Source of the DNA: a virus
Lineage: Duplodnaviria > Heunggongvirae > Uroviricota > Caudoviricetes
DNA: 64,000 bases
Direction: 5' to 3' (one strand)
IMG/VR virus record: IMGVR_UViG_3300045253_000164
Coordinates: 26,314 to 90,313 of that record
Positions 30,672 through 45,882 of this stretch are shown here, in pieces. Positions within the stretch are counted from its first letter, which is position 1; each line of letters begins with the position of its first letter. The notes under the pieces were generated by a model. That model was not told where the DNA came from. It made no database searches and saw only the letters and a program-made list of their open reading frames with translations. The position numbers and the translations under genes were made by a program.

Positions 30672-31718
30672 TCACTCCAACCCCAGGCCCTGCAGCACCC
30701 GCGCCGCCAGGTGCTTGTACAACCACTTCTCCATCGTGAGCGCGTAGGCCCGCTGCGTGATGGCGTCGTACTGATCCGGGTTGTCGCGCACCCATTGCGC
30801 GGCGTCTCCCATGCTAACGGCATCGCGGCTGTGCGCCAACCAGATCCCGTCGGGATCCGTCGGTCCCTCGTGTCCGAAGCAGCGCCGCGGCGCGCCGAAC
30901 GCGGACACCATCGACGGGACGTGATCGCTCAGCATCACGCAGCCCATGGCGAACGCCTCGACGATGCGCATGGGCACGAAGTCGACGTTGGAACAGCTGA
31001 GGGCACAGAGCGCCCGGTTGTAGGCGTCGGCCATGCCCTGATAGCTGAACACCTTGCCGAAGATCGTGCTGGCACTCTCACCCAGGTTGGAGCCGTACCA
31101 CTGGGCCGGCATCGCTTCGGCACCATCGAACCGCGCGCGCAGCTGGTTCCAGATGGTCGGGCGGGGTTCGTAGTGGGTGCCGATCTGACAGATCAGCTTG
31201 TCGCGATCGGCGCCGGGTTTGGTCAGCGGATGAATCTCGGGGTCCGCACCGAACACGAACCATTCCGCCGGACGCCCCTGGCGATCGACGGGTAGCGGCA
31301 CTTTGGCCGTGCGGCCGTTGTCGTCATGCTGGATGAAGTAGGCCTCGAAGTCCGCAGCGCGGAGTTGACTGCGGCTGTGCTGCTCGGCGTTAAAATTTTC
31401 GATTGCCAGGTGTCCCCACTTGATGCCCTCCGGCGCGGTGCCCGTGATAACCAAGTGGTCGTATTGATCAACCGTGCAGACCACGTCCGGTGACCATCCC
31501 ATGTCCGTGCGCGCCAGCTCGACGACGGTCCCAATGTCCACCGGCGCGTTGGGCAGCTCGAGATCGTTGCGGCGATACTCCGCCCACTGACTGAAGCCGT
31601 AGACCTCGGGCGAGCTCGGCCCCGCGGTCAACACCTCGTGGCCCAGTTGCTGGAACGCGCGGCGGACGAACAGCCCGACACACATCGGGCGACTCATGTA
31701 CGTACACAACACCCTCAT
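30672..31718 (-). CDS. GT-B fold glycosyltransferase (GT1/GT4-like, CgeB-like)
   Basis: Start at MRVLCTYM (internal ATG 31718, ATGA overlap). The C-terminal domain has DFVPMRIVEAFAMGCVMLSD, resembling the GT1 E-x7-E region. It is paralogous to 38689..39624. Confidence 0.55.
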   Translation of the reverse strand: MRVLCTYMSRPMCVGLFVRRAFQQLGHEVLTAGPSSPEVYGFSQWAEYRRNDLELPNAPVDIGTVVELARTDMGWSPDVVCTVDQYDHLVITGTAPEGIKWGHLAIENFNAEQHSRSQLRAADFEAYFIQHDDNGRTAKVPLPVDRQGRPAEWFVFGADPEIHPLTKPGADRDKLICQIGTHYEPRPTIWNQLRARFDGAEAMPAQWYGSNLGESASTIFGKVFSYQGMADAYNRALCALSCSNVDFVPMRIVEAFAMGCVMLSDHVPSMVSAFGAPRRCFGHEGPTDPDGIWLAHSRDAVSMGDAAQWVRDNPDQYDAITQRAYALTMEKWLYKHLAARVLQGLGLE

Positions 31719-32722
31719 CCCACTGTCCTCCCTGATCCTAACCGCCCCACGATGTCCAACAGGTACCGTGCGCGGGCTTCGCTCGTGTGATGCCGCAGGA
31801 AATGCGCGTGTCCCGCGGCCGCGATCTGCCGCGCCCGGTCCTCGCGATCCATCAACCACAGCGCCACATCTGCCACGCGCTCACTGCGCTGCACGTAGAA
31901 GCAGTGCACGCCATCTTCCGGGGCTTCTGGAATCTGGATGCGTGGCGCTTCGGCGACCTGGCACAACCCGTAGGCGAACTGTTCCCAGAAACGATTGTTA
32001 TCCCACTGCGTCACGTAGGGATGGCCGTTCCAGCTGATGCCGACCAACGCCTCCGCCATCCGGGCGTGATACTCCTCAGGAGACGGCCGTGTGCCTTTCT
32101 CCTGCCCGCGGTACAACCCGCAGTCGAGTTGCTCGCGTGTGATCTCACCGCGCCCTACAGCGGCTTGCAGCCCTTCGACGATCTGCATCCGCGGTCGCCC
32201 AGGGCCGTCGAAGCCGTGCGCGGTCGCGTGATAGAAGACGCGCAGCGCCTTCGAGGGCATCGGCGTCGGAACCCTGGACGCCGGATAGCAGAGTGGCAGC
32301 GGGTAACCCCAGTTGGCGCCAAGCGGCAGCTCCCGCTTGAAATAGGCAGCAAGCGGACGCCCGGCGCAGGCCTCGTAGAGACCCCGCTGATTGCCGACGT
32401 GGTCGCTGTAGTCGACCGCGACGATGGGCGTCGTGTCGTACTTCGGCAGCGCGCGTACGGTGTGCCGCACTTCTGCCGTGTGGATGGCGATCACGACAAG
32501 GTCGTACTCGACGCTCTCGGGCGCGGGTCGCGTCGGATAGAACAGATCCGAGTCGAGGCTGCATGCATCGCGTTCCGCCGGGTCGCCCAGGTGGTACGTG
32601 GGGTTTGCTGGCCAATCGATCACGTTGTGGTAGCCGAGCACGGAGACCAGGCCGTCGAAGAGGAAGGCGTTGCCATAATCGTGGCCATGCAGGCCGGAGC
32701 CGGCGAGGTAGAGGACTCTCAC
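31715..32722 (-). CDS. GT-B-like putative glycosyltransferase paralogue (family of 3)
   Basis: 335 aa, MRVLYLAGSG...AGHAHFLRHHTSEARARYLLD. It shares the N-terminal MR(V/I)L(Y/L)L motif and C-terminal helix with the other island paralogues. The GTG start overlaps the upstream stop. Confidence 0.35.
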   Translation of the reverse strand: MRVLYLAGSGLHGHDYGNAFLFDGLVSVLGYHNVIDWPANPTYHLGDPAERDACSLDSDLFYPTRPAPESVEYDLVVIAIHTAEVRHTVRALPKYDTTPIVAVDYSDHVGNQRGLYEACAGRPLAAYFKRELPLGANWGYPLPLCYPASRVPTPMPSKALRVFYHATAHGFDGPGRPRMQIVEGLQAAVGRGEITREQLDCGLYRGQEKGTRPSPEEYHARMAEALVGISWNGHPYVTQWDNNRFWEQFAYGLCQVAEAPRIQIPEAPEDGVHCFYVQRSERVADVALWLMDREDRARQIAAAGHAHFLRHHTSEARARYLLDIVGRLGSGRTVG

Positions 32723-32895
32723 CGCCGCACTTCCTTCCCCGGCCAGCCGCTGCCCTTCAGCACGAACGTCGTTGCCGACACCAGTCGCGTCACCTTGCCA
32801 CTACACCGCGGACAGCGGCGCAACGCGGGCTCCGTAATGCGCTGCTGGCGCTCGAAGGGGCCACAGCGTGGACAGTGGTACTCATAGGTCGGCAT
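32719..32895 (-). CDS. FmdB-family zinc-ribbon protein
   Basis: MPTYEYHCPRCGPFE...RRCPRCSG matches the FmdB motif MPxYEYxCxxCG plus a second CxxC. Start at internal ATG 32895. Confidence 0.55.
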   Translation of the reverse strand: MPTYEYHCPRCGPFERQQRITEPALRRCPRCSGKVTRLVSATTFVLKGSGWPGKEVRR

Positions 32896-33289
32896 TCGTG
32901 GTGATCTCCGCAGTGACCTCCGCCATTCGACGCCAATGTTCCGCAAGCGCCATCAGCAGCTTTCGCGCAGCAGAGTCACCGCATAGGCCAGCTGCAACGG
33001 CTTCTGCGTCGCTCGCACAGAACCGCAACACCCCCACCTGCACTTGGCAACGGGATGCTTCGTTTGGAGCCTCATTGAGTTGAGACAGAATCCACTCAAC
33101 ATCCGCTTCGTCAACGACGGTATAGATGCCGTTGTAGACGCCGGTGCCACGAACAGTCTGGATAGGGACGCCGCCACTGACCGGTTTCGCGTCCCGGAAG
33201 GGTCCCCCGATCTCCCACCGCGCACCCGGCATAATCTGGCGACACCAAGCAACAGCCTCTTCCTTCTTATTCACCCTCATGCCATCCAC
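32882..33289 (-). CDS. hypothetical protein
   Basis: 135 aa; overlaps its neighbours by a few nt. Confidence 0.35.
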   Translation of the reverse strand: MDGMRVNKKEEAVAWCRQIMPGARWEIGGPFRDAKPVSGGVPIQTVRGTGVYNGIYTVVDEADVEWILSQLNEAPNEASRCQVQVGVLRFCASDAEAVAAGLCGDSAARKLLMALAEHWRRMAEVTAEITTNADL

Positions 33290-33723
33290 TCCATCTGCCG
33301 CGCCCCGAATCCCACCGCCAGGTACAGCGCCGTCGCCGCCGTGTTCTCTGGCTTCAGGTTTACAATCACGCGGGTAATGCCCTGGGTCTTGAGCCAGTCC
33401 AACAGCAACGCAATCGCTTCGCGCATGTAGCCCCTGCGTCGCTGTTCGGGGGCCATCAAGACCTGGCCCAGCTCGATCGACGCGCCGTCGTGGTTGGAGA
33501 CGCCGAGCTGTCCGATGGCCACGCCGTCGTGCTCGACGATGAGCATCGTATCAGTGCCGCTCAAGTACTTCGCAAACCACGCTTCATGCTGTGCCATCGT
33601 CAATTCAGCATTGTGAAAGAACGCCTCACGGCTCGCGTTGCGCCAGACAAGCGTCAGCAGCAAATCGGCCTCGGTGAGGGGGCGCAGCGCGATGCGGGCA
33701 CCGAGAAGCGCGGGCGCTTTCAT
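33277..33723 (-). CDS. GNAT-family N-acetyltransferase
   Basis: IALRPLTEADLL...; motif A QRRRGYMREAI; KPENTAATALYLAVGF tail. Confidence 0.6.
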   Translation of the reverse strand: MKAPALLGARIALRPLTEADLLLTLVWRNASREAFFHNAELTMAQHEAWFAKYLSGTDTMLIVEHDGVAIGQLGVSNHDGASIELGQVLMAPEQRRRGYMREAIALLLDWLKTQGITRVIVNLKPENTAATALYLAVGFGARQMEWMA

Positions 33724-34856
33724 CGCAGCCCCCGCATCACGCGCCCGACGCGCTCCACGTCATCGAACGTCATCCCGACATGCAACGGCAACGACAGCAG
33801 TTCTGCCGCAGCACGCTCCGCACGCGGGCACCGTGCGGCACCGGCATACATCGGGTAGCTCGTGTTGCACTGATAGTGGACGCCGGGGAAAATCCCCTGC
33901 GCGTTTAGCTGTTGCAACAGCTGGTCACGGTTCAGAACGCGCACCTGATAGAGATGCCGCGACGACACACAACCGGGCGCTTGCGGGATTCGCTGCGCCC
34001 ACACCGGCAATACGGCATCGTAGATCTGACTGAGTTCTCGTCGCCGCAAATTGTCGGCCTTCAAATAGCGCAGCGCCACCAAGCCCATCGCCGCCATCAC
34101 CGCGTTGCCGTGATACTTGAAGCCGACGCGCGGCACGTCGTACTGCCAACGGTAGCCGCTCGTCGCCTGAGTCCGGCTGTAGGTGTCCTTGGTGATCCCG
34201 AGCCACGTGAGTTGGCGGCAGAGGTGATCGTGGGTTGGATCACGGAAGCAGACCATCCCACTGTCGGCCGTTGGCAGATTCTTTACCGCATGAAAACTGA
34301 ACACGGTCGCGTCTGCTTCTGACCCCACGTGCCGGCCGTTCCATTCGGTACCCGCCATGTGCGCGGCGTCGAGGATGAGCCGCAGGTTGTAGCGGTGGCA
34401 GATCGCAATGATCTCCGGCAGCTGTCCTGTGTTGCCCCCGATGCCAACGAACATCACGGCCCGGGTCCGCCGCGTGATCCGGGACTCTACCGACTCTGGA
34501 TCGAGGCACAGGTACTCATCAACATCGGCGAACACCGGTCGGAGTCGTTCGTAGAGGATCACATGGTTCGTCGACACAAACGTCAGCGGCGTCGCAATGA
34601 TCTCGTCGCCGTCCTGCCAGCCATCTTCAGACTTCAAGGTGTGCACAGCGAGGTGCAATCCGGCCGTCGCGGAGTTGACGAAGTGCGCGTGCGGCAATCC
34701 CGTGAAGGCTCTCCACGCCGCTTCGAAGCGCTGCGTTGTTTCACCGGGGCCCGTCCAACCGGATTCCAGGCACGGGCGAATGGCGTCCAGCACTTCGTCG
34801 ACGCGGTACATCGGTCGGAATAGATGCAACGGTGTGACCGAACCTGTGACGGTCAT
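33720..34856 (-). CDS. DegT/DnrJ/EryC1/StrS-family PLP-dependent sugar aminotransferase
   Basis: 378 aa; FSFHAVKNL contains the family's Schiff-base Lys motif (SFHxxK). GLHLAVHTL is also present. Confidence 0.75.
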   Translation of the reverse strand: MTVTGSVTPLHLFRPMYRVDEVLDAIRPCLESGWTGPGETTQRFEAAWRAFTGLPHAHFVNSATAGLHLAVHTLKSEDGWQDGDEIIATPLTFVSTNHVILYERLRPVFADVDEYLCLDPESVESRITRRTRAVMFVGIGGNTGQLPEIIAICHRYNLRLILDAAHMAGTEWNGRHVGSEADATVFSFHAVKNLPTADSGMVCFRDPTHDHLCRQLTWLGITKDTYSRTQATSGYRWQYDVPRVGFKYHGNAVMAAMGLVALRYLKADNLRRRELSQIYDAVLPVWAQRIPQAPGCVSSRHLYQVRVLNRDQLLQQLNAQGIFPGVHYQCNTSYPMYAGAARCPRAERAAAELLSLPLHVGMTFDDVERVGRVMRGLR

Positions 34857-35650
34857 GTCAGCACCGCTTGGTGCACGAGCACGTCGGCCATGGTCACGCC
34901 CTTGGGTGCAATCCGGACGGCACGGCCGGCAACGTCGATGTGCTCACCGTCAAGTCTGCGCGCTGGAAGGACCGGCGTAGCTGCGGAGACCTCAGTCTTG
35001 CCCGTCGCGTAGCTTTGGAAGTGCGGATGCCCGTTCGCCCCCAGGCCCAGGACGCGGCGTGTGTTGTCAGGCACCCAGTGATGATCGGAGTTGAGCAGGA
35101 TACTCCAGATGGCATAGCCCTGTTGCAGCGCCCAAATACAGGGCTCCCACGCCCCGTAGCCATAGCCGAAGCGCAACGCCCCAACACAGCCCCGTTCGCG
35201 GAACAGGTCGACACGGAAGCCGAACGAGAAGCTGTCCAACGTGACGCCGAGATGATCAACCGACGGCAGGCTGGGGTTGGCCTGCTCATCCCACACGGAG
35301 TAGGCGCACCAGGTCGCCAGAGCCACGCGCCAGCCGTGTGCCAGCTCCAGCTGATGCTCCCAGCCCGGCTCACGCATCGCAAAATCGTCGTGGACCACCA
35401 TGCACCAGTCCCACTGCTGGGCAACGGCGTAGTCCAGGCACCATTGCCAGAGGTCGCACTCGTCCTCGAAACGGCCGACCTGCTGCACCACCTCGACGCC
35501 CTCAGGAATCGGCGGCAACTCCCCAGCGGTGATCCCGTTCAGCAAAGCAATCACCGGGGTATCGCGTTGAGAGAAGTGCCGACAACTCCACCAGGCACGC
35601 TCCTGCATGGCGTGACGGGTGCAAGTAGGGATGATGAGGCCGACCTTCAT
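34853..35650 (-). CDS. putative GT-A fold glycosyltransferase
   Basis: 265 aa; MKVGLIIPTCTRH resembles the GT2 N-terminus; VHDDFAM is a DxD-like motif. Weak. Confidence 0.3.
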   Translation of the reverse strand: MKVGLIIPTCTRHAMQERAWWSCRHFSQRDTPVIALLNGITAGELPPIPEGVEVVQQVGRFEDECDLWQWCLDYAVAQQWDWCMVVHDDFAMREPGWEHQLELAHGWRVALATWCAYSVWDEQANPSLPSVDHLGVTLDSFSFGFRVDLFRERGCVGALRFGYGYGAWEPCIWALQQGYAIWSILLNSDHHWVPDNTRRVLGLGANGHPHFQSYATGKTEVSAATPVLPARRLDGEHIDVAGRAVRIAPKGVTMADVLVHQAVLT

Positions 35651-37093
35651 CTACCCTTCCACCATACGATCGCCGACCGCCAGCATATCCACGCCCAACT
35701 GCCGCGCCGTACCTTCCGCGTCGGTCACGGTGTTTGCCATCGCCTGCCCGTGCCCGTTGAAGCTGGTGTTGAGCAGCATCGGCACACCCGTTGCGCAACC
35801 GAACGCCGCGAGGATGTGACCGAGCACAGACGACTCGTCGACGAGCTGCACACGCGCCGACCCGTCGGCGTGTACAGCGGCCGGCGCCAGCCGCCGCATC
35901 TCCTCGGTGGCCTGGCAGATCGTGGTCATGAACTCGTAGGCGCCGGGATCGATCAGGTCGAAGTAACGTCGGGCGTGTCGACGCAGCACGACCGGCGCCA
36001 CCGGCCGCCACGGCGCGCGCTGCTTCATCTCGTTCAGCCGGCCCTTGATGGCGAGCGATCGCGGATCCGCCAAAAGCGAGCGATGACCCAGCGCTCTTGG
36101 TCCCGACTCAGCGCGGCCGTTCACCAGCGCGACGATCTGCCCCTCGAGCAGCGCGTCGACGACGCGATCAACATTGGGTGTGCCTTCCAATCCCGGCTCC
36201 GTCCAGCCGGCAAACGCCACCTGCTCCACGGAGTACCGTCGGCGTGGCTCTCCCAGGATCCGATGCAGGACATACAACGCTGCCCCGATGGACAGGCCGC
36301 CATCGTCGCACGCAGGAGGTACCCATGCAGCGGGAACATGACCGGAGCGGAGCAATGCATGCACGGCAATCCCGTTGAGCGCGCAGCCGCCGGCGATCAC
36401 CACCGGACGCCCTGCAGGCACGAGCTCGTGGAACGCGTCGATCGTCTGGGCCTCGAGCGTCGCCACGCGCGATCGGACGGCGGGGTCCATTCCCGTTCGA
36501 GCGGTGAAATCCTCCGCGGGAATACCGAGCAGCGCCATGACGGTGCCTTCTTGAAACTGCCCGCCGCAGATCTGGTGGGAGGCGTCGTTCCAGGCGCCCC
36601 CGATACCAGGGCAGGGATGCCAGCGGATGCCGAAGGTTTCGCCGTTGCCATTGCCCACTGCGCAGGTGATCACCTTGAGCCCTTCGGGCGTCTTGTAGGC
36701 GTCGCCGCCGCCGTCCAGCGCGAGAATCGAAGCCTGGTCGTAAGGACTCGTGTAGTAGGCATACGCGGCGTGGGCCGTGTGATGAGGAATGCCGAAGGCG
36801 CGGCGATCTCCACCGAGCACGCAGCTCGAGCGGTCATCGAACTGCATCAGGTCGTCCCAGCCGTTGCGCGTAATGCCGAACATCCCCGATACGCCGGCCA
36901 TATAGGTGATCTGCTCCCGGGTGATCCCGATCAGTCGGCAGGCGTCGTCGACCTGCTCCATCGGTGCTAGGGTATCGTGCCGGATGCGGGTGAAGCGCTC
37001 GCGCTCGAAGTGGACGATCTTGCCGTCGCCGACAATGGCGAAGCTGCCGTCGTGGCCCTGGTAAGCGCCCAGCACGTAGATGGGGTCAGCCAT
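35651..37093 (-). CDS. NodU/CmcH-family O-carbamoyltransferase
   Basis: 480 aa; IPHHTAHAAYAYYTSPY, ESGPRALGHRSLLADPR and MLLNTSFNGHGQ match the conserved carbamoyltransferase N- and C-domain motifs. Confidence 0.75.
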   Translation of the reverse strand: MADPIYVLGAYQGHDGSFAIVGDGKIVHFERERFTRIRHDTLAPMEQVDDACRLIGITREQITYMAGVSGMFGITRNGWDDLMQFDDRSSCVLGGDRRAFGIPHHTAHAAYAYYTSPYDQASILALDGGGDAYKTPEGLKVITCAVGNGNGETFGIRWHPCPGIGGAWNDASHQICGGQFQEGTVMALLGIPAEDFTARTGMDPAVRSRVATLEAQTIDAFHELVPAGRPVVIAGGCALNGIAVHALLRSGHVPAAWVPPACDDGGLSIGAALYVLHRILGEPRRRYSVEQVAFAGWTEPGLEGTPNVDRVVDALLEGQIVALVNGRAESGPRALGHRSLLADPRSLAIKGRLNEMKQRAPWRPVAPVVLRRHARRYFDLIDPGAYEFMTTICQATEEMRRLAPAAVHADGSARVQLVDESSVLGHILAAFGCATGVPMLLNTSFNGHGQAMANTVTDAEGTARQLGVDMLAVGDRMVEG

Positions 37094-37096
37094 CCG

Positions 37097-37369
37097 CTAG
37101 ACTTCTTCCCATCCGCACAACCACAGTGTGTCGAGATTATCGCTGCGGCCGGCCAGTACCACATCCACCATGACATCAATGTCCCTGATGCGCAGGCCGA
37201 ACAAAACATTTGCCGTCTGAACGCAGAGATGAAGCGCGGCTTCCGCGGATCGCGACAAATTGCCACCGACAGATACCGCTGCCTCAATCAGTGACCACGG
37301 ATTCAACCCTCGATAGGGATTCACGCGGTTGCTCAGTCGGTGATCGATGCGAATCCAATTCTGGTTCAT
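37097..37369 (-). CDS. hypothetical protein
   Basis: 90 aa from internal ATG 37369 (MNQNWIRIDH...), with ATGA overlap to the upstream stop. Confidence 0.35.
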   Translation of the reverse strand: MNQNWIRIDHRLSNRVNPYRGLNPWSLIEAAVSVGGNLSRSAEAALHLCVQTANVLFGLRIRDIDVMVDVVLAGRSDNLDTLWLCGWEEV

Positions 37370-39781: not shown

Positions 39782-40705
39782 TCACTCCCGCACCTCGGCA
39801 CTGCTGATCCCATCGCTGAGCCCGTGGTAGGCCTTGCTGACCGCCCAGCAATCCACGCCAACGAAGTAGTGCGCGCGGGCCAGCATCTCGAAAAACGCCG
39901 CATCGCCCACGCCGTGTCGATTGTCCTCGCCCCAGTACTCGACATTGTTGGGGCCGTGGACGCGGCCATACTCGACCCACACCAAACACGCCCCCAGACA
40001 GTTGACGCGGTGCATCACCTGGTTGTGATCACAGCGTCCATCGACGCCGTAGCGCATCAACCCAGGACGCCAGAAGCCCTCTTCAACCCAGGATGCGTGC
40101 GTGTCGGGATCCACCCCGTCGTCGTACAGCGCGCGAAAACTCGCGCCGCCGTTCAACGCGGCGCGCGGGCCGGTCGGCAGCGGGAAGTCCGCCGTCAGCG
40201 GCTGCGGAGGCCCGCTGTTCTGCCACTGGTTGCGGGAGCCATCGGCGCCAAACTGCACTGATCGCAGCCGCCCGTACACGACGTGTTCTTGAGGGTGCGC
40301 ATCGAGATACTCGGCCCGCAGTCGGACACTGTGCGGGTGCAGGACGTCATCGTCGCAGAGATACGTCAGGTACCGCTCGTCACGCCGCAGATGATTCAGC
40401 CCGATGTTGATGGTCCTCGAGTAGGGGATCGTCGCCTTGCGCTCGGCCATCGTGCGATCCGGTCCCATCCACCAGGTCACGCGATCGGTGCTCACCGCGA
40501 CGCCGCCGGCGACGTGCTGCTCGGAGTCCCACGCGGTGAGGCCCTGGGCGTCACGAATGGCGGCGCGCGCCTCAGGATTGCAACCGTCGTCGAGCACAAG
40601 TAACCGCCAGCGGTCGCAGTCCTGCGCCAGCACCGAGGCGATCGCCGCCGCCACCATGCGCGGCCGGTTGTAGGTGGTCAGCAGCACCAGGGTGTCGCGG
40701 CTCAT
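39782..40705 (-). CDS. family-2 (GT-A) glycosyltransferase
   Basis: LVLLTTYNRPRMVAAAIASVLAQDCDRWRLLVLDDGCNPEA plus YLCDDDVL (DxD). Start at MSRDT (ATG 40705, ATGA overlap). Confidence 0.7.
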   Translation of the reverse strand: MSRDTLVLLTTYNRPRMVAAAIASVLAQDCDRWRLLVLDDGCNPEARAAIRDAQGLTAWDSEQHVAGGVAVSTDRVTWWMGPDRTMAERKATIPYSRTINIGLNHLRRDERYLTYLCDDDVLHPHSVRLRAEYLDAHPQEHVVYGRLRSVQFGADGSRNQWQNSGPPQPLTADFPLPTGPRAALNGGASFRALYDDGVDPDTHASWVEEGFWRPGLMRYGVDGRCDHNQVMHRVNCLGACLVWVEYGRVHGPNNVEYWGEDNRHGVGDAAFFEMLARAHYFVGVDCWAVSKAYHGLSDGISSAEVRE

Positions 40706-41646
40706 TCCAGCCTCCGCACCATCGTCAGCCCGAAACCCCACGGGAGCGTCAGCACCTCGAACTCCGGGCGCTGCCGCAGCTCGTTCACCACGATCGCCAC
40801 GCCAGTGTCGGCGTTCGTGGCCGCGCCGTTCTCAAAATAGTCGTGCAGCAGACAGAGTCCGTTGACGCGAACGCGGGGCAGGTAGCGCTCGACGTCAGCC
40901 CGCACCTGGGCCTCGCTGTGATCACCATCGATCCAGAGCAGATCGAGCGTCTCGGGCGGCTCAAAGTCGTTGGAGTTGATCACATGCAGCGCCCACCATT
41001 GGCTCAGCTTGGCCTGGTCGACGTAGCACGCGGCCTTCTCGGCAGCCTCTGCGTCGCACTCCAGCGAATGCAGGAGTCCACCTGTCTCGCGCATGGCGTA
41101 GAGCAACGGCATCGTCGAGATGCCTTCACGTACGCCGATCTCCAACACCACTGGCGGTCGTACAGGTCCCCGAGATTCGGGGTCGGGCCAGTTGACCCAC
41201 TTCGCAATGCTGTAGAGCACCAGCAAGTGCGGCCGTGAGTCGTAGAAGTCGCCGGCCTCCGTCCACCAGGCAGTGTCCCGGCTCAGCGCCACGAGCTCGG
41301 CGTCGCCGAACGGGCCGCGCCAGGGAGCGTTGACGCCGCCCCCCGATGGTCGCGGACTCCCGGGGCGTATGGCGCGTTGGAGGTCCACGCGTTCCGCCGC
41401 CAGCGAGAAATCCAGACGTCGTGGCGCGGTCAACGGCGGCGGTAGAATCGTTGCCCGCGTCGGTTGCAGCGTCGGCTGCGCCAAGCTCACCGGCGCCGAG
41501 CGTGGCGCAGGTGTCTGGGCAACGCTAGTCGCGAAGCGCAGGAAGAAGCTGAGGCCTGTGCGGGCGATCAGCTCTACCTGGTCCGGTGCGAAGCGATCGG
41601 CGAAGGTCGATCGCATCGCGGATTCGAATTGCTCGGCGGCGCTCAT
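40702..41646 (-). CDS. class I SAM-dependent methyltransferase (TylF/MycF-like, probable O-methyltransferase)
   Basis: LEIGVREGISTMPLL (motif I), LLWIDGDHSEAQV...LLHDYF. Confidence 0.6.
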   Translation of the reverse strand: MSAAEQFESAMRSTFADRFAPDQVELIARTGLSFFLRFATSVAQTPAPRSAPVSLAQPTLQPTRATILPPPLTAPRRLDFSLAAERVDLQRAIRPGSPRPSGGGVNAPWRGPFGDAELVALSRDTAWWTEAGDFYDSRPHLLVLYSIAKWVNWPDPESRGPVRPPVVLEIGVREGISTMPLLYAMRETGGLLHSLECDAEAAEKAACYVDQAKLSQWWALHVINSNDFEPPETLDLLWIDGDHSEAQVRADVERYLPRVRVNGLCLLHDYFENGAATNADTGVAIVVNELRQRPEFEVLTLPWGFGLTMVRRLE

Positions 41647-41876: not shown

Positions 41877-42674
41877 CTACAGCTCCACAATCCGGTCGTC
41901 CGGCTCGAAGGCCGGCGACAACACCCGCACCAACGTCAGGCCGAATGAAAACGGTAGTGTCAAGATCTCATAGCACCCCGTCTGCCGCAGCTGTTCCACG
42001 GCGGCGCTGACGTAGCTCGGGAACGGCGGCTGAATCGGCGGATCGCACGGCCAGGGCTTGGAGTAGTAGTCGTGCAGCGCAATGAGCCCTCCGGGCCGCA
42101 CCTGCGGCACGAAGCGCTCGACGTCCTTGCGCACCTGGTCGAGGCCGTGATCGCCGTCGATCAGCAGGAAGTCCAGCGGCCGCCCCAGCGTTGCGCAGTC
42201 GAAGTCGTCGGAGCGCTGGATGCGCAGGTCCCACCACGGCGTCAGCTGGGCCCGCTCGATGACGTCAGCCGCGGCACGCGCCCAGTCCGGATCACACTCC
42301 AGTGACACCAAGCGCCCATTGGCTTCGCGCATCGCGTGCAGCAGGTTCAACGTGCTGACGCCATGACGCACACCAATCTCCAAGCAGAGCGGTGGTCGTA
42401 GCGGCCGCGGCGCGCGGGGGTCGGGCCAATTGATGTTCCTGGCCAGCGCGTAAAGGATCGGCCCATGCGCACGCACATCGAACCAGTCGTCGACGCTCTT
42501 GCCATCAGGGCCGGTGTTGATGAACGCGCGGGTGTCGCGGCTCAGCGCCAGTAGCATAGCGTCATCCCAGGTGGCGCTGGTGACACTGGCGGACGCAGGG
42601 GGGACCGCTGCGGGCACCGCCACCGATGATGGCGGTGTCCCGCAGCGGAGACGATAGAGGGCGTCGAGGTCCAC
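41877..42674 (-). CDS. class I SAM-dependent methyltransferase (paralogue of 40702..41646)
   Basis: CLEIGVRHGVSTLNLL, FLLIDGDHGLDQV...ALHDYY. Confidence 0.6.
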   Translation of the reverse strand: MDLDALYRLRCGTPPSSVAVPAAVPPASASVTSATWDDAMLLALSRDTRAFINTGPDGKSVDDWFDVRAHGPILYALARNINWPDPRAPRPLRPPLCLEIGVRHGVSTLNLLHAMREANGRLVSLECDPDWARAAADVIERAQLTPWWDLRIQRSDDFDCATLGRPLDFLLIDGDHGLDQVRKDVERFVPQVRPGGLIALHDYYSKPWPCDPPIQPPFPSYVSAAVEQLRQTGCYEILTLPFSFGLTLVRVLSPAFEPDDRIVEL

Positions 42675-42681: not shown

Positions 42682-43032
42682 TCAGACCGTCCAGATTTCC
42701 ACGTCCACCTGCGTCGCCGCGGTGATGGGTAGCGTGATGATGGACGGGCGCGACGGCGTCGGTCCCTGCTGAGGCACCGGCATTTTGTTCTGTGGGGTCC
42801 ATGTCTTGCCGTCGGGTGTCTTGACGATCACGTTCATTTCGCTCGCGCTGCTGGCCTTGATGACCTGATACTGCGCGACCGCGGACAGCGGGTTCAGCAC
42901 GGCGAGTGTCGTCGTGTCCATCGCTACCCACGAGAACGTCGTGCCCGAAGGGAGATCACGGCGGCTGCCGTCCGACATGACCGCGACCGCGCGGACGCTG
43001 ACGACCTGACCGAGTTGCAAAAGGGTGCTCAT
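42682..43032 (-). CDS. bacterial Ig-like (Big_2-like) domain protein
   Basis: 116 aa; LQLGQVVSVRAVAVMSDGSRRDLPSGTTFSWVAMDTTTLAVLNPLSAVAQYQVIKASSASEMNVIVKTPDGKTW fits the Big_2 pattern. Confidence 0.45.
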   Translation of the reverse strand: MSTLLQLGQVVSVRAVAVMSDGSRRDLPSGTTFSWVAMDTTTLAVLNPLSAVAQYQVIKASSASEMNVIVKTPDGKTWTPQNKMPVPQQGPTPSRPSIITLPITAATQVDVEIWTV

Positions 43033-43035: not shown

Positions 43036-43428
43036 TTACTCCTTCTCCCGCAGCAAGCGGGGCTGTAGTTGCGTGATTCGAGACGCGTGCCATTGACCGC
43101 GGCGCTGACGTTCCGCCATGAAGGCGTCGGCAACGTCGAACGCGGCGATCACGATCAGCTCGCTGGCGCGCTCGGCTCCGACCGCCTGTTTCGCAGCGGT
43201 CGCAAGCTCCGGATCAGTAGCCATGCGTGCCAGCAGCACCATGGCGCACTCGTCGCGGAGCGCAGTGTCGGGGTCGTGGCCGTTGAGAACGGTTCCGGTG
43301 GTAGGGCCTATGCGTTCCATCCTGTCCTTCCTACTCGCGCACCTGCAGGTCGGTCCGATGGCCGTGTGCGTGGTAACAGTCGGAATCGAGCCATCACTCG
43401 CGCCTGCTCGGATCACTTCGGTGTCCAT
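43036..43428 (-). CDS. hypothetical protein
   Basis: Tracked ORF 43036..43542; plausible starts at ATG 43428 or 43320; C-terminal helical region. Confidence 0.3.
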   Translation of the reverse strand: MDTEVIRAGASDGSIPTVTTHTAIGPTCRCASRKDRMERIGPTTGTVLNGHDPDTALRDECAMVLLARMATDPELATAAKQAVGAERASELIVIAAFDVADAFMAERQRRGQWHASRITQLQPRLLREKE

Positions 43429-44338
43429 ACGGATGCCCGTATCGCTTGACCACCACGACGTCCGGGACGCTGTGAAAGGGACCGAGGCCGGCGAGCTCCA
43501 GGCGATAGAACCAGCCAGCGTCAGGACAGTCGAAGCGCTCACCAGGCAACCACGATTCCGAAAACGGCGCGTCGTCTATTTCTTCAAGTTGCCGGATGCG
43601 TCCATGCTCTTCATACCGAAAGATTTCCCGCGTTCGCGTTTCTGGCCATTGCGGAATACTCATCGGCAATCCGGCCAAGCCGCCATAGATGAACCCGTCG
43701 GGACCTGTATGCTCAAGCATGTTCGGTACACGCCGCACCATCGGCATCCCGTGGTCACAGCGGTTGGCGATGCGCGCCACGGGTTCGGCGGAGTAGAAGC
43801 TGTTGCGGTCATGCTTGCACTTGCCAGCGCCCTGAAGGAACGACGGCAAGCTGGGTCGTACCCCAAATTCGCCACAGTCAATCCCCTCAGGCAACGAATG
43901 CAGTCCCATTGCTGGCATGGGCGACTTACAGCTTTCCAGCCGCCCGTAAACCACATTCACCTCGGGATGCTCGATCAAGTACCGCACCCGGACTTCGATG
44001 CTGCCCAGCGTAAGAAAATCATCGTCAGGTAAATAGACCACGAAGTCCCCGTGCACGCACGCCATCGCCGTGTTGATGCAGATGGCGCAGCGCTGACCGT
44101 GCTGGCGCTCCTCCGGCGTCGGCGGCGGTCCAGGCTGGACGCACAACAGGCTGCGACCCTCGGTGAAGCACGAGCCGTACTCGGCGAGCACGTCGTGCAC
44201 AGCGTGATCGCTCCAATCGTCGGCGACAATGACCTCGATGTTCGGCCAGGTCTGCGCGAGGATGCTGTCCAGCGCATCACGGATCAACGTTGGCCGATTG
44301 TACGAGCTGAGTACGACACTGACGAGCGGCTCGTTCAT
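43394..44338 (-). CDS. family-2 (GT-A) glycosyltransferase
   Basis: VSVVLSSYNRPTLIRDALDSILAQTWPNIEVIVADDWSD plus VVYLPDDDFL (DxD). Confidence 0.7.
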   Translation of the reverse strand: MNEPLVSVVLSSYNRPTLIRDALDSILAQTWPNIEVIVADDWSDHAVHDVLAEYGSCFTEGRSLLCVQPGPPPTPEERQHGQRCAICINTAMACVHGDFVVYLPDDDFLTLGSIEVRVRYLIEHPEVNVVYGRLESCKSPMPAMGLHSLPEGIDCGEFGVRPSLPSFLQGAGKCKHDRNSFYSAEPVARIANRCDHGMPMVRRVPNMLEHTGPDGFIYGGLAGLPMSIPQWPETRTREIFRYEEHGRIRQLEEIDDAPFSESWLPGERFDCPDAGWFYRLELAGLGPFHSVPDVVVVKRYGHPYGHRSDPSRRE

Positions 44339-44664
44339 GGCTTCTGCCCGTTCGGCACTTCCCGCACCCAGCCGAGCCCTTGCTGCGCCTGCGTGCGGTA
44401 GAAATCCGCGCGGCCCATGGCGCGAGCGAATTGCTCATCGCTCAGCGGGTAGGGCTGCATCCACTCGCGGCCCTCGGCATCGGCCACCGCTGCCTCGGCC
44501 ACCGCCATGCACCACTGCACCAACTCGCCGGGCTTGGTCGTCAGCGCTGCGGTGTTCGTCGCGGCGGCGCGCAGCAAGTCGAGCACGATACGAAAGCGCA
44601 GGTCGAGCTGGAGGCCCTCGTCGCGGTCGTTGCTGAGGGGACTGCGGAAGTACGGCGTGCTCAT
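44335..44664 (-). CDS. hypothetical protein
   Basis: ~110 aa from internal ATG 44664 (MSTPYF...), ATGA overlap; the upstream part of the tracked ORF is rejected. Confidence 0.35.
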   Translation of the reverse strand: MSTPYFRSPLSNDRDEGLQLDLRFRIVLDLLRAAATNTAALTTKPGELVQWCMAVAEAAVADAEGREWMQPYPLSDEQFARAMGRADFYRTQAQQGLGWVREVPNGQKP

Positions 44665-45644
44665 GCGGCCTCCGGGAGTGTACTGTGAATGGCGCACCAG
44701 ACTGTCTCGGCACGGTGGCGCGTGGTGTGGTGACGGAGCCACCAGGCTTGCGCAACCTCCGCCAAGGCATGGGCGGCTATTGAGTCTGCCAGGAGCTGTT
44801 GCACAATGCGGAGAGCCTTGTCTGCGGTGCGAAACAGCGGAGTGACAATGCCCGACAGGCCCTGAATCCCGCAGGGAGCACCCGCGCGTGGTTGGTGACC
44901 ATCCTCCAACACCGGGCAGCACCCATCCGCGATGATCTCGAGGTGCCGGTTGGTGTGGTAACCAAGCCCCGCCGGCGACACGGCAATCAACGCAGACCGA
45001 TTCGCGGCGTGATTCTCCGCAACGTCCCACCGGGAACCGTCGGGCGGCATGACCACGCCCAGCTCGCGCAACCCTTCGCGCAACTGAGCTCGCGTCGAGT
45101 CCGGCGTGCACCAGTCCCACAGATGGGCTGAGTACACGACAGACGGCTCACGCTCGCCCACGGGCACCTGCCGTGAGGCCGGATAGCCGAAGGGCAGGGA
45201 CGTCGCCCAGTTCGCGCCCACCGGCAGTTCGCGCTTGAAGTACGCCACCGGCGCGGCGCCGAGGCACTCCGTGAACAGCGGCTGCGTGTTGTGCGGGTGG
45301 TCTTCAGCATCGTACGCGACGAGGCGATCGCGGGAGGCGTTCAGCAGCCCGGCACGCGCCCAGCTCCGCAGTTGCGACCGTACCTCGCCACGCACCGTCG
45401 GTACGATCACGGCAGCGAACGTCCCGTCGCGCAGGGCTTGCGCCACACGCTCGGCGCTCCAGTCGTGCTGGGGTCGATGCAGATCGCAGTCGAACGTCGC
45501 CGGAGCACCCTCGGACAGATGCAGCGACGGCTTCGGCGGCCAGTCGATCACGTGACCATCACCGAGCAGCTCGCAGAAGCCGTCGTACAGATAGTCCGGG
45601 CCGTAGTCCGGCGACGGATCGGTAAGAAACAGAATATCAGGCAT
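44661..45644 (-). CDS. GT-B-like putative glycosyltransferase paralogue (family of 3)
   Basis: Start at MPDILFLTDPSPDYG (ATG 45644). It shares the N-terminal and C-terminal (AQAWWLRHHTTRHRAE) signatures with 31715..32722 and 37366..38376. First gene of the island operon. Confidence 0.35.
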   Translation of the reverse strand: MPDILFLTDPSPDYGPDYLYDGFCELLGDGHVIDWPPKPSLHLSEGAPATFDCDLHRPQHDWSAERVAQALRDGTFAAVIVPTVRGEVRSQLRSWARAGLLNASRDRLVAYDAEDHPHNTQPLFTECLGAAPVAYFKRELPVGANWATSLPFGYPASRQVPVGEREPSVVYSAHLWDWCTPDSTRAQLREGLRELGVVMPPDGSRWDVAENHAANRSALIAVSPAGLGYHTNRHLEIIADGCCPVLEDGHQPRAGAPCGIQGLSGIVTPLFRTADKALRIVQQLLADSIAAHALAEVAQAWWLRHHTTRHRAETVWCAIHSTLPEAA

Positions 45645-45882
45645 GGGCGCGCGCCGGGGACCGGCGACCGTGGGTGGGGCCATGTCAAAAGCGCGGGTAA
45701 CGAGAGATGGTTCATGTGTCAAGCGGTTTCCGTGCGATGATCGTAAAGATGGCGCCGTGCAGCGCTGGGAGGACCGGATGCACTTCCCAGATCGACCAAC
45801 CGGCGGACTCCAGGGCGTTCAACTGCTGCTCCAGATAGAGCTGGTCGACGTTGGCTTGGATCTTCCAGGTATACGGCATCGT

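Follow-up and report, generated by a model that had tools for sequence, protein, structure and literature searches.

A conserved, wholly cytoplasmic locus for predicted glycan assembly in uncultured siphovirus-like phages, with virion head proteins as candidate acceptors

A siphovirus-like tailed phage, uncultured and represented by a 90-kb metagenomic contig of which 64 kb were read (the window), encodes what is best explained as a glycan assembly line that is conserved, wholly cytoplasmic and the property of a previously undescribed clade of such phages. The sugar-building locus takes up about a quarter of the phage genome. Virion glycosylation is the best explanation of the locus and, judged from gene content and gene position, is held here with moderate confidence.

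The island proper (45683-30672) consisted of 24 minus-strand genes, all in one direction, on which the public gene call for the identical Logan contig and a codon-usage model agreed. Four-base start-stop overlaps were present at 12 junctions (10 ATGA and 2 GTGA), bearing out the minus-strand operon with serial ATGA-type overlaps described in the original prediction. The operon extends beyond the bounds given there, 30672-45722: it begins near 46164 and ends at a strong terminator (28861-28828), and an equivalent hairpin followed by T6 was found at the same position in the related contig L036. An upstream module (48983-52621) of a Methyltransf_11 gene and two SDR genes, conserved in synteny, is also part of the locus, which thus reaches a total of about 22 kb (Table 1). 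Genes for the large terminase, major capsid protein, head protease, major tail protein and tape measure are encoded in the same window. The island is flanked on the same strand by DNA methyltransferases and VRR-NUC upstream and by head and tail genes downstream, and base composition does not shift across it. Because of this uniform composition and the same-strand phage genes on both flanks, the island is phage-borne. A bacterial polysaccharide island beside a prophage, or an assembly chimera, would fit enzyme families that are typical of bacteria and a uniformly high GC content. Such an origin is scarcely credible, however, as the locus lies between same-strand phage genes without a shift in composition, independent assemblies from several samples, and a JGI contig as well, show this arrangement, and the genomes of 185,579 bacterial or archaeal species yielded neither a cellular nor a prophage copy.

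Table 1. Features of the locus and of the adjacent head genes, in descending order of position
Feature	Position	Strand	Length (aa)	Characteristics
Methyltransf_11 class I methyltransferase	52079..52621	-	180	First gene of upstream module; PF08241 46.8 bits
SDR, ArnA/UXS-like	50208..51179	-		Epimerase family 150 bits; SSSEVYG and YxxxK motifs
SDR epimerase or reductase, GalE/LegB-like	48983..49990	-		Epimerase family 189 bits
g3, CgeB-like GT-B, divergent subtype B	44661..45683	-	340	PF13524 26.1 bits, just over cut-off
g5, GT2 (GT-A)	43394..44338	-	314	PF00535 58 bits; DDD motif at residue 105
g7	42682..43032	-	116	Called Big_2 in the original prediction
g8, class I SAM methyltransferase (Methyltransf_24)	41877..42557	-		PF13578 74 bits
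g10, second Methyltransf_24 enzyme	40702..41646	-		PF13578 64.8 bits, residues 168-270; N-terminal extension of ~110 aa
g11, GT2-like	39782..40705	-	307	PF00535 42.9 bits
g12, CgeB-like GT-B, subtype A	38689..39624	-	311	PF13524 51 bits; FEAMAMG motif
g14, CgeB-like GT-B, subtype B	37366..38376	-	336	PF13524 25.8 bits; 44.5% identity to g22
g16, NodU/CmcH/TobZ-type carbamoyltransferase	35651..37093	-	480	Carbam_trans_C 166 bits, Carbam_trans_N 69 bits; HHxxH motif
g17, GT-A-fold protein	34853..35650	-	265	Invariant H-D-D motif; always adjoins DegT
g18, DegT/DnrJ/EryC1 PLP-dependent sugar 4-aminotransferase	33720..34856	-	378	PF01041 277 bits; SFxxxK lysine motif
g19, GNAT N-acetyltransferase	33277..33723	-	148	Acetyltransf_3 68 bits, Acetyltransf_1 56 bits
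g21, FmdB-type zinc ribbon	32719..32895	-	58	Zn_ribbon_8 52.5 bits; 55-63% identity in L035, L036
g22, CgeB-like GT-B, subtype B	31715..32722	-	335	PF13524; protein chosen for structure modelling
g23, CgeB-like GT-B, subtype A	30672..31718	-	348	Last GT of operon; PF13524 37.7 bits; VEAFAMG motif
g25, Cys-rich	29560..30291	-	243	Conserved between last GT and head genes; 41-48% identity in L035, L036, L037
Strong terminator-like hairpin	28828..28861	-		15-bp stem and T-run; ends island operon just before protease gene
Decoration/cement-like head protein	26142..26633	-	163	Lambda gpD position; weak Phage_cement_2, E 0.016
Major capsid protein	24875..26122	-		Phage_capsid_4, phrog_371

Eight soluble glycosyltransferases (GTs) were counted: five CgeB-like GT-B proteins and three GT-A proteins (two GT2 and one further GT-A-fold protein). 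Domains were called with Pfam, and all five GT-B proteins matched PF13524 (YkvP/CgeB-like GT) above its gathering score of 25 bits. They fall into subtype A with an E-A-x-A-M-G motif (g12 and g23, 26% identical to each other) and subtype B (g3, g14 and g22). With PF00535 matched at g5 and g11 and a GT-A fold at g17, the predicted GT complement was recovered in full, including two GT-B proteins with the EAxAMG motif and three of a second subtype. g3 showed 28-32% identity to g14 and g22 and kept every invariant residue of the family alignment. Its orthologues in L043 and L046 were 40-53% identical, and those of g23 in L035, L036 and L037 were 37-49% identical. Among the GT-A proteins of the locus, g11 is conserved most widely (46-56% identity in L035, L036 and L037), for which SpsA was the best PDB sequence match (2.5e-9). 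A word-indexed search of 5.8 billion proteins returned 25 relatives of g12, all metagenomic, 24 of them at 42-100% identity and one at 28%; no match to g12 was found in sequenced phages, and matches to g5 in such phages were confined to the generic N-terminal domain. Neither GT-B subtype occurred in 50,697 sequenced phages, in IMG/VR or in 185,579 genomes. The proposed link to actinobacteriophages found no footing in the four island enzymes tested, as no sequenced phage held a specific relative of either GT-B subtype, of the g5 GT2 or of a Methyltransf_24. The closest cellular relatives occur in bacterial MAGs, and the wider GT family includes Methyltransf_11/25-GT fusions.

The best viral structural matches of g22 were giant-virus YkvP/CgeB-like proteins, in which the UniProt name of the domain comes from CgeB; a GT of phage SP-15 was also among the viral matches. 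As modelled, the GT fold cannot separate a protein acceptor from a DNA acceptor, because proven DNA arabinosyltransferases share the same best structural matches as the island GTs. DNA hypermodification has GTs put sugars on hydroxylated pyrimidines (5hmC, 5hmU, 5hoC), thereby blocking host nucleases (cf. T4, RB69/DLP3 and the metavirome clusters of Pyle et al.). It would agree with the match to SP-15, itself a DNA-hypermodifying phage, with the use of GT4-like folds of the same top structural matches by DNA glycosyltransferases, and with the solubility of every island enzyme. Published DNA-GT clusters often have epimerases, ParB-like proteins, methyltransferases and terminase as neighbors, and the window contains every one of these; ~26 kb of the 90-kb contig lie outside it. 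Nevertheless, we consider this explanation quite improbable. Neither the 64-kb window nor the gene tables of the related loci contained a thymidylate-synthase homologue, TET/JBP dioxygenase, C5 DNA methyltransferase, dCTPase or dNMP kinase, and base-modifying pathways are usually clustered; the predicted lack of enzymes for base hypermodification thus held for any maker of a hydroxylated base. Eight GTs with methyl, carbamoyl and N-acetyl-amino-sugar decoration go far beyond the mono- to trisaccharides known on DNA, heavy glycosylation of the DNA would make the N6/N4 DNA methyltransferases of the phage (at least three) largely superfluous, and the island co-occurs with the changes in capsid proteins described below.

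No nucleotidyltransferase is present, so that host sugar nucleotides must feed the pathway. The SDR at 50208-51179, which showed 40-42% identity in L043 and L046, is a probable UDP-glucuronate decarboxylase according to its best NCBIfam model, UDP-4-keto-pentose/UDP-xylose synthase (101 bits, below cut-off). The other SDR scored 158 bits with GalE and 136 bits with LegB, both below cut-off; its TSSMAVYG motif differs from the TDE motif of 4,6-dehydratases. The neighboring Methyltransf_11 gene was 45% identical and kept its place in the gene order in L043 and L046. PseC (226 bits) and ArnB (216 bits) were the nearest NCBIfam models for g18, both again below cut-off, and g19 was weakly similar to PseH and WecD. 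Because no model for the island enzymes reached its NCBIfam equivalog cut-off, the sugars are not assignable from sequence. g16 matched phrog_1601 at 1.5e-75, with relatives of 28-35% identity in cyano- and pelagiphages, and scored just 136 bits against the 1000-bit cut-off for NodU. g8, a probable sugar O-methyltransferase by its domain match, was 46% identical to g10 and had orthologues in L036 and L037 at 48-62%.

Profile searches of the island reading frames, named in the original prediction as its check, sustained the GT, aminotransferase and carbamoyltransferase calls, and Pfam likewise backed the GNAT enzyme and the FmdB zinc ribbon. The two methyltransferases said to be TylF-like are both of class I but match Methyltransf_24 and not the TylF model. 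The Big_2 call failed, its sole candidate g7 giving no Pfam match even at E<=5 and no PHROGs match. The PDB matches of g7 were fibronectin, Ig-like and surface proteins at non-significant E values of 0.1-0.8, so that it is possibly an Ig/FN3-like beta-sandwich; conservation in related loci was not detectable. No Pfam or PDB match was obtained for g25.

Small-molecule glycosides are the classical substrates of NodU/TobZ/CmcH carbamoyltransferases and TylF/CmcI-like methyltransferases, and a "GT4 in conflict systems" domain was found in the related loci L046 and P0184. Both observations would suit a soluble target other than the virion. Host proteins or small molecules might be glycosylated, for example to inactivate a cofactor or defence signal, or the product might be a decorated oligosaccharide or glycoside that stays free. 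This reading is very unlikely, as the locus is without an aglycone-biosynthesis or export gene and eight GTs are too many for a small-molecule glycoside; the position in the structural block and the co-varying capsid features would also not be accounted for.

Convincing membrane segments were absent from the island proteins, the top 19-residue Kyte-Doolittle value (1.8) lying within the globular carbamoyltransferase. Pfam and hydropathy analysis gave no Wzx/Wzy/Gtr-type or other membrane partner in the locus, in accordance with the original prediction. This bears on remodelling of the host envelope, in which the enzymes would work from the cytoplasmic side on lipid-linked host precursors of O-antigen, capsule or glycoprotein. 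The host flippase and polymerase would then export the altered glycan and so change the cell surface, which would bring about superinfection exclusion or keep progeny from adsorbing again to debris. The set of SDR, DegT, acetyltransferase, GT and methyltransferase does resemble bacterial surface-polysaccharide clusters, the JGI label of g12 reads "glycosyltransferase involved in cell wall biosynthesis", and the nearest cellular relatives are in bacterial MAGs. We regard it as unlikely, since neither a membrane protein of any kind nor an initiating polyprenyl-phosphate transferase, flippase, polymerase or ligase is encoded in the conserved locus, the 64 kb showed no integrase and no further lysogeny function, and the 185,579 species' genomes held no copy. 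Moreover, the locus sits in the head-morphogenesis module and not in a moron or attachment-site position, and an island-specific capsid loop and decoration-protein tail would be left without explanation.

Besides the source contig, at least seven metagenomic contigs (L035, L036, L037, L043, L046, L047 and L048) contained related loci. In the three with DNA reaching the capsid genes (L036, L037 and L047), the locus occupies the stretch directly upstream of the protease-scaffold-decoration-capsid genes. The copies in L043 and L046 follow terminase and a portal-sized gene and so fall within the head module. DegT, GNAT and carbamoyltransferase are lacking in L035, and L048 has additional TylF and PfkB kinase genes; going by these gene contents, variation of this kind is the pattern to expect for a surface structure that experiences diversifying selection.

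The capsid loop PVTGGTVSAAGANQGV is a Gly/Ser/Thr stretch of 16 residues (residues 301-316, coded at 25175-25222). The decoration-like protein, whose gene has the highest GC3 in the window (0.91), ends in the C-terminal tail GDLTNNSLLPSSAIS, which is Ser-rich with a conserved T-N-x-S (coded at 26145-26189). Loop insertion and tail were each present in 4/4 island-bearing phages and in 0/33 island-lacking relatives. The capsid of island-lacking L001, at 51% identity to that of the window, is as close as that of island-bearing L047. The four island-bearing phages are one clade, so the association of motifs and island may reflect a single evolutionary event. A strong conserved terminator lies between island operon and head genes, which leaves their co-transcription a conjecture. 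Loop and tail are the specific candidate sites for the glycan. Virion-protein acceptors, as originally predicted, thus fit the head-gene position and the island-only loop and tail, which are circumstantial, while the GT fold would fit a DNA acceptor as well.

For virion glycosylation, we infer the following order of reactions. The two SDR enzymes would convert host UDP-sugars, the ArnA/UXS-like one probably making a UDP-4-keto sugar and the other being GalE-like. From the keto sugar, DegT aminotransferase and GNAT would produce the sugar nucleotide of an N-acetylated 4-amino sugar. The eight soluble GTs would build the oligosaccharide straight on a soluble acceptor, two or three SAM methyltransferases would O-methylate it, and the NodU/TobZ-type enzyme would O-carbamoylate it. 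Acceptors would most likely be virion head proteins from the adjacent operon, giving a glycan coat on the capsid that may serve shielding, stability or adhesion. CgeB, a soluble GT, was reported to O-glycosylate a self-assembling shell protein (PMC13577073). The Mimivirus fibril cluster, with dehydratase, aminotransferase, N-acetyltransferase, five GTs, methyltransferase and one extra decorating transferase (PMC9614988), has the same enzyme logic as the island. In mycobacteriophages, as quoted in PMC12619734, capsid and tail-tube proteins bear their glycans at the C-terminus. If virion glycosylation is the true function, the capsid of this phage would carry a coat of complex, decorated glycan made by the phage itself, which has so far been demonstrated chiefly in giant viruses and in a few mycobacteriophages.

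Between 45683 and 30672, the glycan operon has 24 genes in a single orientation on the minus strand, which carries almost all genes of the window. Four-base start-stop overlaps were found at 12 junctions (10 ATGA and 2 GTGA), and most of the remaining junctions span 0-3 bases. The GC content is ~64% throughout the window, and the island shows no compositional break. A 20-kb Logan contig from an independent public assembly (run SRR35384910) was identical to the window, and the public gene calls matched those based on codon usage. The predicted operon start is probably a divergent intergenic region with promoter-like matches on both strands, and its end is a strong hairpin with a T-run immediately before the head protease gene. 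Since this conserved terminator sits between the island and the protease gene, the idea that island and head genes are transcribed together was considered and dropped. The original prediction had delimited the island at 30672-45722; the gene calls agree with the operon so defined, whereas the boundaries were drawn too narrowly, a conserved upstream module (48983-52621) belonging to the locus as well. The whole locus measures ~22 kb, of which ~15 kb encodes recognisable glycan enzymes.

Coordinates of the glycan locus, neighbouring phage features and counterparts on other metagenomic contigs (L-numbers; L005 and L031 lack the island)
Feature	Sequence	Position (nt)	Strand
Large terminase	window	37-1908	
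DNA methyltransferase, N6/N4-type	window	1909-3285	
585-aa putative tail fibre	window	4145-5902	
1,966-aa putative tail fibre	window	5916-11816	minus
Capsid insertion (residues 301-316)	window	25175-25222	
Ser-rich tail of 163-aa protein	window	26145-26189	
Gap between operon and protease gene	window	28808-28990	minus
Hairpin and T-run	window	28861-28828	
g25, Cys-rich protein	window	29560-30291	minus
Glycan operon, 24 co-oriented genes	window	45683-30672	minus
Divergent intergenic region	window	near 46.2-46.5 kb	
DNA methyltransferase, N6/N4-type	window	46566-47534	plus
170-aa ORF with signal peptide	window	48262-48774	minus
NAD-dependent SDR sugar-nucleotide enzyme, GalE/LegB-like	window	48983-49990	
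NAD-dependent SDR sugar-nucleotide enzyme, ArnA/UXS-like	window	50208-51179	
SPFH/Band-7 protein	window	51207-52076	minus
Methyltransf_11 enzyme	window	52079-52621	
DNA methyltransferase, N6/N4-type	window	55651-56331	
507-aa protein with dockerin type I domain	window	57719-59242	minus
Operon-protease gap, with hairpin and T6	L036	14389-14555	
Operon-protease gap, with -35-like motif	L035	14270-14556	
HNH endonuclease/endonuclease VII	L035	11196-11705	
HNH endonuclease/endonuclease VII	L037	12706-13698	
HNH endonuclease/endonuclease VII	L043	11617-12300	
HNH endonuclease/endonuclease VII	L046	11459-12136	
GalE-like SDR homologue	L005	~16030-17010	
GalE-like SDR homologue	L031	~17104-18090	

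In the gap that separates the operon from the protease gene lies a -35-like motif, AACTTCCCGCTTGACA, and a very strong terminator hairpin follows ~90 nt downstream. An equivalent hairpin followed by T6 occupies the same gap in the related contig L036, and AACTTCCCGCTTGACA is also present in a second one, L035. The order of promoter then terminator before late genes resembles lambda PR'-tR', an arrangement under antitermination control.

The identity of the glycan enzymes was examined with Pfam profiles, which bore out the GT-B, GT2, DegT, GNAT, carbamoyltransferase and zinc-ribbon calls of the original prediction. Five proteins matched the YkvP/CgeB-like glycosyltransferase family PF13524 with 37.7, 43.3, 25.8, 51.1 and 26.1 bits, two of these scores barely exceeding the gathering threshold of 25 bits, and they have the two-Rossmann-domain architecture of GT-B enzymes. 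Their division into two subtypes, likewise foreseen, is evident from motifs and identities. Subtype A (g12 and g23, 26% identical) carries an E-A-x-A-M-G motif, and subtype B carries a conserved F-K-R-E-L-P motif and consists of g22 and g14, which are 44.5% identical, and g3, which is 28-32% identical to both. Two GT2 genes, one GNAT gene, two Methyltransf_24 genes and one FmdB-type zinc ribbon were also confirmed by Pfam. The methyltransferases had been expected as two TylF-like class I enzymes; two methyltransferases are indeed present, but the model that they match is Methyltransf_24 rather than TylF. The DegT protein (g18) scored 276.8 bits against PF01041 and has the PLP-lysine motif SFHAVK; it reached no equivalog cut-off among the NCBIfam models compared (PseC, ArnB, WecE and others), PseC and ArnB being the closest. 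In the carbamoyltransferase g16, both Carbam_trans_N (Kae1-like, 69 bits) and Carbam_trans_C (YrdC-like, 166 bits) were above cut-off, and the HHxxH metal motif reads HHTAH at residue 104. With 135.9 bits against the NCBIfam NodU equivalog, which has a cut-off of 1000 bits, g16 is classed as a member of the NodU/CmcH/TobZ superfamily and not as NodU itself. Catalytic motifs are intact in this enzyme, in DegT and in the SDRs. Because no enzyme reached equivalog level in NCBIfam, the sugar cannot be named.

A Big_2 Ig-like protein had also been proposed for the island. The candidate, g7 (116 aa), gave no Pfam hit at E<=5 and no PHROGs hit, and its fibronectin/Ig-like PDB matches were non-significant, so this assignment was rejected. 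PDB sequence searches with g22, g12, g17 (the GT-A-fold protein) and g25 returned no useful match. The last of these, g25, is 243 aa long and rich in Cys, including several CxxC pairs, and had no match in Pfam either. It is 41-48% identical in L035, L036 and L037 and always lies between the last glycosyltransferase and the head genes; a 206-aa gene at the same position in L047 is likely its counterpart. Regulation, chaperone activity and head assembly are among its possible roles.

No transmembrane segment was found in any island protein, and the conserved locus contains no Pfam family for the parts of an O-antigen or serotype-conversion system, i.e. GtrA/GtrB/Gtr(type), flippase, polymerase or initiating polyprenyl-phosphate transferase. 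This agrees with the earlier statement that membrane anchors and Wzx/Wzy/Gtr partners are absent. The same results bear on the idea that the enzymes remodel glycans of the host envelope by way of host carriers, which we regard as unlikely: the locus has neither an initiating transferase nor a flippase, no lysogeny genes occur in the 64 kb examined, and island-specific features of the capsid would be left unexplained.

The two SDR genes and the Methyltransf_11 gene lie upstream of the island as first delimited. In the related contigs L043 and L046, the order is Methyltransf_11, SDR, SDR, g3-like glycosyltransferase and, in L046, also a g5-like glycosyltransferase (g5 being one of the two GT2 proteins), the same as in the window at 40-58% identity. 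Because this gene order is kept, the upstream module is counted as part of the system. The ArnA/UXS-like SDR has an SSSEVYG motif, and its top NCBIfam model, UDP-4-keto-pentose/UDP-xylose synthase, scored below cut-off. In the window, the module is set apart from the main operon by a DNA methyltransferase gene on the plus strand, which is missing at that position in related phages, and by a few small ORFs. An SPFH/Band-7 protein whose lipoprotein signal contains …LGLSGC… is encoded inside the module, and the 170-aa ORF with a signal peptide lies just downstream of the module. The latter two were rejected as glycan machinery because related loci do not conserve them; probably they are separate cargo with a function at the host membrane. 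For the same reason, all of these intervening genes were treated as inserted cargo. GalE-like SDR homologues (55-57% identity) also occur ~6 kb downstream of the capsid gene in two island-lacking relatives on large contigs (L005 and L031; 93 and 104 kb), implying that sugar-nucleotide genes lie near structural genes in the wider phage group too.

Relatives of the locus were sought in several collections. Among 50,697 sequenced phage genomes, there was no match to the island by megablast or, by tblastn, to the capsid protein or to either GT-B subtype. IMG/VR held no relatives of the subtype-B glycosyltransferase, either with a single sequence or with a 13-sequence alignment, and nothing was found when the genomes of 185,579 GTDB species were scanned with the glycosyltransferase alignment. 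A word-indexed search of 5.8 billion proteins yielded 44 subtype-B and 25 subtype-A relatives, all of them metagenomic and often sharing contigs, and a full profile search gave 180 cluster representatives at E<=1e-30 among 1.84 billion. Both subtypes are rare subfamilies, confined so far almost entirely to metagenomic contigs of phage-like character. The wider subtype-B family (P0124, P0135, P0122 and P0184) includes fusions of an N-terminal Methyltransf_11/25 domain with a CgeB-like glycosyltransferase, ~600-670 aa long, and also fusions of two glycosyltransferases. Both fusions with source names (MBI5092447.1 and MCC6793483.1) come from Candidatus Hydrogenedentota MAGs, which may be a clue to the origin of the genes or to the host lineage. 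The sole match of the capsid protein in GTDB genomes was in a Phycisphaerae MAG, at 23% identity too weak to name a host. The terminase found two loci only in the metagenome scan, both at 23% identity.

Related loci were present on seven other contigs (L035, L036, L037, L043, L046, L047 and L048). The protease, scaffold, 163-aa protein and capsid genes follow immediately after the end of the island in L036, L037 and L047, as in the window; in L043 and L046, a terminase (44-46% identical to that of the window) and a portal-sized gene precede the island by a few kb. Thus, the locus has a conserved position inside the head-morphogenesis block. The core common to the window, L036 and L037 comprises both GT-B subtypes, the GT2 protein g11, g17, DegT, GNAT, the carbamoyltransferase, Methyltransf_24 enzymes and g25. 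Common to the window, L035 and L036 is the zinc ribbon, which was not detected in L037. Decoration genes differ from phage to phage: DegT, GNAT and the carbamoyltransferase are missing from L035, and TylF, an epimerase and a PfkB kinase occur in L048. HNH endonuclease or endonuclease VII genes stand among the glycan genes of four contigs, pointing to mobile-element traffic and mosaicism within the locus.

The exact g22 sequence is found on a 90,313-bp JGI contig; the window therefore represents 64 kb of a ~90-kb genome. In addition to the terminase, it encodes a DNA methyltransferase fused to ParB; a head protease, a scaffold-like protein containing DUF6582, the 163-aa protein and the major capsid protein; connector proteins; and, for the tail, the major tail protein, a tape measure of 1,559 aa and large proteins resembling fibres. 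The locus lies among these phage genes, and a non-phage origin is scarcely credible. The order of protease, scaffold, 163-aa protein and capsid mirrors lambda C-Nu3-D-E. With a GC3 of 0.91, the top value in the window, and a weak match to a phage cement-protein family (E 0.016), the 163-aa protein might, with low certainty, be decoration-like. The terminase gene follows the tail genes and is ~23 kb away from the capsid module; no portal gene was identified in the 64-kb window. In L043 and L046, terminase and portal-sized genes are located upstream of the glycan genes, which points to a circular permutation of a map that reads terminase, portal, glycan locus, head and tail.

Several other features of the window were recorded. 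One of its three N6/N4-type DNA methyltransferases is fused to a ParB-like domain and adjoins the terminase gene. A 1,966-aa protein with 19.5% Gly and ~20% Ser+Thr has a Gly-rich C-terminal domain (weak Gly_rich_2 match) and nine copies of an R-Y-V-T-S-G-E-L motif spaced by 110-240 residues; the 585-aa product of the next gene has one copy. Both are probable fibre proteins of the tail, and glycosylation might extend to them. The N-terminal dockerin type I domain of a 507-aa protein without a PHROGs match scored 28.7 bits, above cut-off; such a domain is unusual in a phage. A tRNA scan found none and so gave no pointer to the host.

Candidate acceptor sites emerged when the capsid and 163-aa proteins of island-bearing and island-lacking phages were aligned. 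A 16-residue capsid insertion, PVTGGTVSAAGANQGV, is conserved in all four island-bearing phages compared (window, L036, L037 and L047). The same four share an extended, Ser-rich C-terminal tail with a conserved T-N-x-S motif (GDLTNNSLLPSSAIS) on the 163-aa protein. IMG/VR yielded 33 relatives of the capsid protein (31-50% identity); island genes within 10 kb were absent from all of them, and neither the insertion nor the T-N-x-S tail was found in any of the 33 island-lacking relatives. In L001, an island-lacking phage, both motifs are absent, yet its capsid is as near to that of the window (51% identity) as is the capsid of island-bearing L047. The pattern fits candidate acceptor sites that co-evolved with the locus; because the four phages may form one clade, the association may also reflect a single evolutionary event. 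The capsid loop is internal rather than C-terminal, and the C-terminus of the tail-tube protein is not Ser/Thr-rich.

A glycan hypermodification of DNA would accord with two observations: proven DNA arabinosyltransferases share the top structural matches of g22, and published clusters of DNA glycosyltransferases often lie near epimerases, ParB-like proteins and terminase. Phage systems of this kind (T4 alpha/beta-GT, RB69/DLP3 arabinosylation and the 5mYOX-GT systems of Pyle et al.) have soluble GT-A and GT-B enzymes and structural neighbours in common with the present locus, and their clusters sometimes include epimerases and a second or third glycosyltransferase. Since proven DNA glycosyltransferases have the same structural neighbours, fold cannot identify the acceptor, and fold similarity was dropped as an indicator of it. 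These clusters, however, possess an enzyme for the hydroxylated base as their defining partner, and the genes of such pathways normally cluster. Neither the 64-kb window nor the Pfam tables of the related loci contained a thymidylate-synthase homologue or 5mYOX/TET-JBP, a C5 methyltransferase, a dCTPase or a dNMP/thymidylate kinase, and the only DNA methyltransferases found were of the N6/N4 type. The enzymatic complexity is also far above that of known DNA glycans, and a DNA target thus appears improbable. If DNA were the target, the locus would exceed every known pathway of DNA glycan modification in complexity. A small molecule or a host protein as target explains least among the alternatives and is more improbable still.

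Known virion and protein-shell glycosylation systems offer closer parallels. The giant-virus clusters (Mimivirus R135-L143 with added genes; PBCV-1 A064R, A061L and A111/114R) are, like this locus, virus-encoded and clustered, and their glycan machinery lacks ER/Golgi targeting signals and is therefore thought to be cytoplasmic (PMC9614988). Mimivirus and this locus each have a branch of SDR, PLP aminotransferase and N-acetyltransferase, five or more soluble glycosyltransferases and SAM methyltransferases that act, or here would act, on the glycan; the extra decorating transferase is pyruvyl in Mimivirus and carbamoyl here (PMC9614988), and the review nowhere mentions carbamoyl groups on giant-virus glycans. 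Clustered sugar-nucleotide enzymes, several soluble glycosyltransferases and tailoring transferases, the marks of a giant-virus-type cluster, are all found in this locus. Among viral structures, g22 matched YkvP/CgeB-like proteins of giant viruses best, with TM-scores of only 0.55-0.6. No sequence-level homology to the giant-virus glycan cluster was found, the acetyltransferase is a GNAT enzyme here and a left-handed beta-helix there, and this phage is a tailed one with an HK97-type head module, whereas Mimivirus and PBCV-1 belong to the Nucleocytoviricota. The likeness would be one of functional analogy and not of homology.

In mycobacteriophages, glycosyltransferases (Che8 gp110, Corndog gp38 and Myrna; Freeman et al. 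2023), sometimes with methyltransferases, are reported to modify the C-termini of capsid and tail-tube proteins (as quoted in PMC12619734). In the present phages, the island is accompanied by a Ser-rich C-terminal tail on one of the head proteins. Papers citing the mycobacteriophage work name one or two glycosyltransferase genes in each actinophage, whereas this locus combines eight with amino-sugar, methyl and carbamoyl tailoring over ~22 kb. The original prediction had drawn a link to actinobacteriophage glycosylation. The tblastn comparison with the 50,697 phage genomes gave it no homology: no actinophage matched either GT-B subtype, the g5 GT2 protein or the one Methyltransf_24 enzyme used. 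In the Bacillus spore crust, CgeB is reported to be a soluble glycosyltransferase that O-glycosylates Thr112 on the exposed face of CgeA, a self-assembling hexameric shell protein (PMC13577073). The five PF13524 proteins share the CgeB domain (YkvP/CgeB in UniProt), and the top PDB sequence match of g11 is Bacillus SpsA; CgeB is made by the sporulating cell, whereas the island GT-Bs are viral and form two distinct rare subfamilies. The carbamoyltransferase g16 matched the Nol-like enzymes of cyanophages and pelagiphages (phrog_1601; 1.5e-75, 28-35% identical). These are isolated auxiliary genes in myoviruses, whereas g16 is translationally coupled within a glycan operon, which suggests a glycan substrate. 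The closest functional kin would be giant-virus capsid/fibril clusters and mycobacteriophage virion glycosylation, with a sequence relation to neither.

The enzymes belong to recognised families, are soluble, come with no lipid-carrier or export component, and are phage-borne and kept beside head genes. In the pathway we propose, the ArnA/UXS-like and GalE/LegB-like SDRs would convert host UDP-sugars, and DegT and GNAT would yield an N-acetylated 4-amino sugar. The eight glycosyltransferases would build an oligosaccharide on a cytoplasmic acceptor, to which the methyltransferases would add O-methyl groups and the TobZ/NodU-type enzyme an O-carbamoyl group. The virion head is favoured as acceptor because the locus lies within the head-gene block, because two head-protein motifs are island-specific, because CgeB provides a precedent for glycosylation of an assembled protein shell, because the logic resembles that of the Mimivirus fibril cluster and the PBCV-1 capsid-glycan enzymes, and because capsid and tail-tube proteins of mycobacteriophages carry C-terminal glycans. 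We put the chance that the function is virion glycosylation, with the head as favoured acceptor, at about even. Held with somewhat less than even confidence is the specific proposal that a deep-branching clade of uncultured tailed phages coats its own capsid with a glycan of at least eight sugar additions with O-methyl, O-carbamoyl and N-acetyl-amino-sugar decoration, attached at the co-evolved loop and the T-N-x-S tail, its machinery drawing on two glycosyltransferase subfamilies known so far almost only from phage-like metagenomic contigs.

Virus-encoded glycosylation machinery is already known; the size, enzymatic breadth and conserved placement of this locus, with its predicted function, are unusual for a phage. 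Self-glycosylation of virions is well documented in giant viruses and of recent date in a few mycobacteriophages with small gene sets. If the proposal is correct, a phage would devote ~22 kb, a quarter of its genome, to eight glycosyltransferases and tailoring enzymes, extending complex autonomous glycosylation beyond giant viruses. The locus would be the bacterial-virus counterpart of giant-virus capsid glycosylation and by far the most elaborate virion glycosylation system known in phages. It would also add two glycosyltransferase subfamilies with likely protein acceptors and give the widespread, unexplained Nol-like carbamoyltransferases of marine phages a concrete role. The candidate acceptor motifs are directly testable sites. 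Glycan coats influence antibody recognition, particle stability and adhesion, and through these effects the system, if confirmed, would be relevant to phage therapy and to capsid glyco-engineering.
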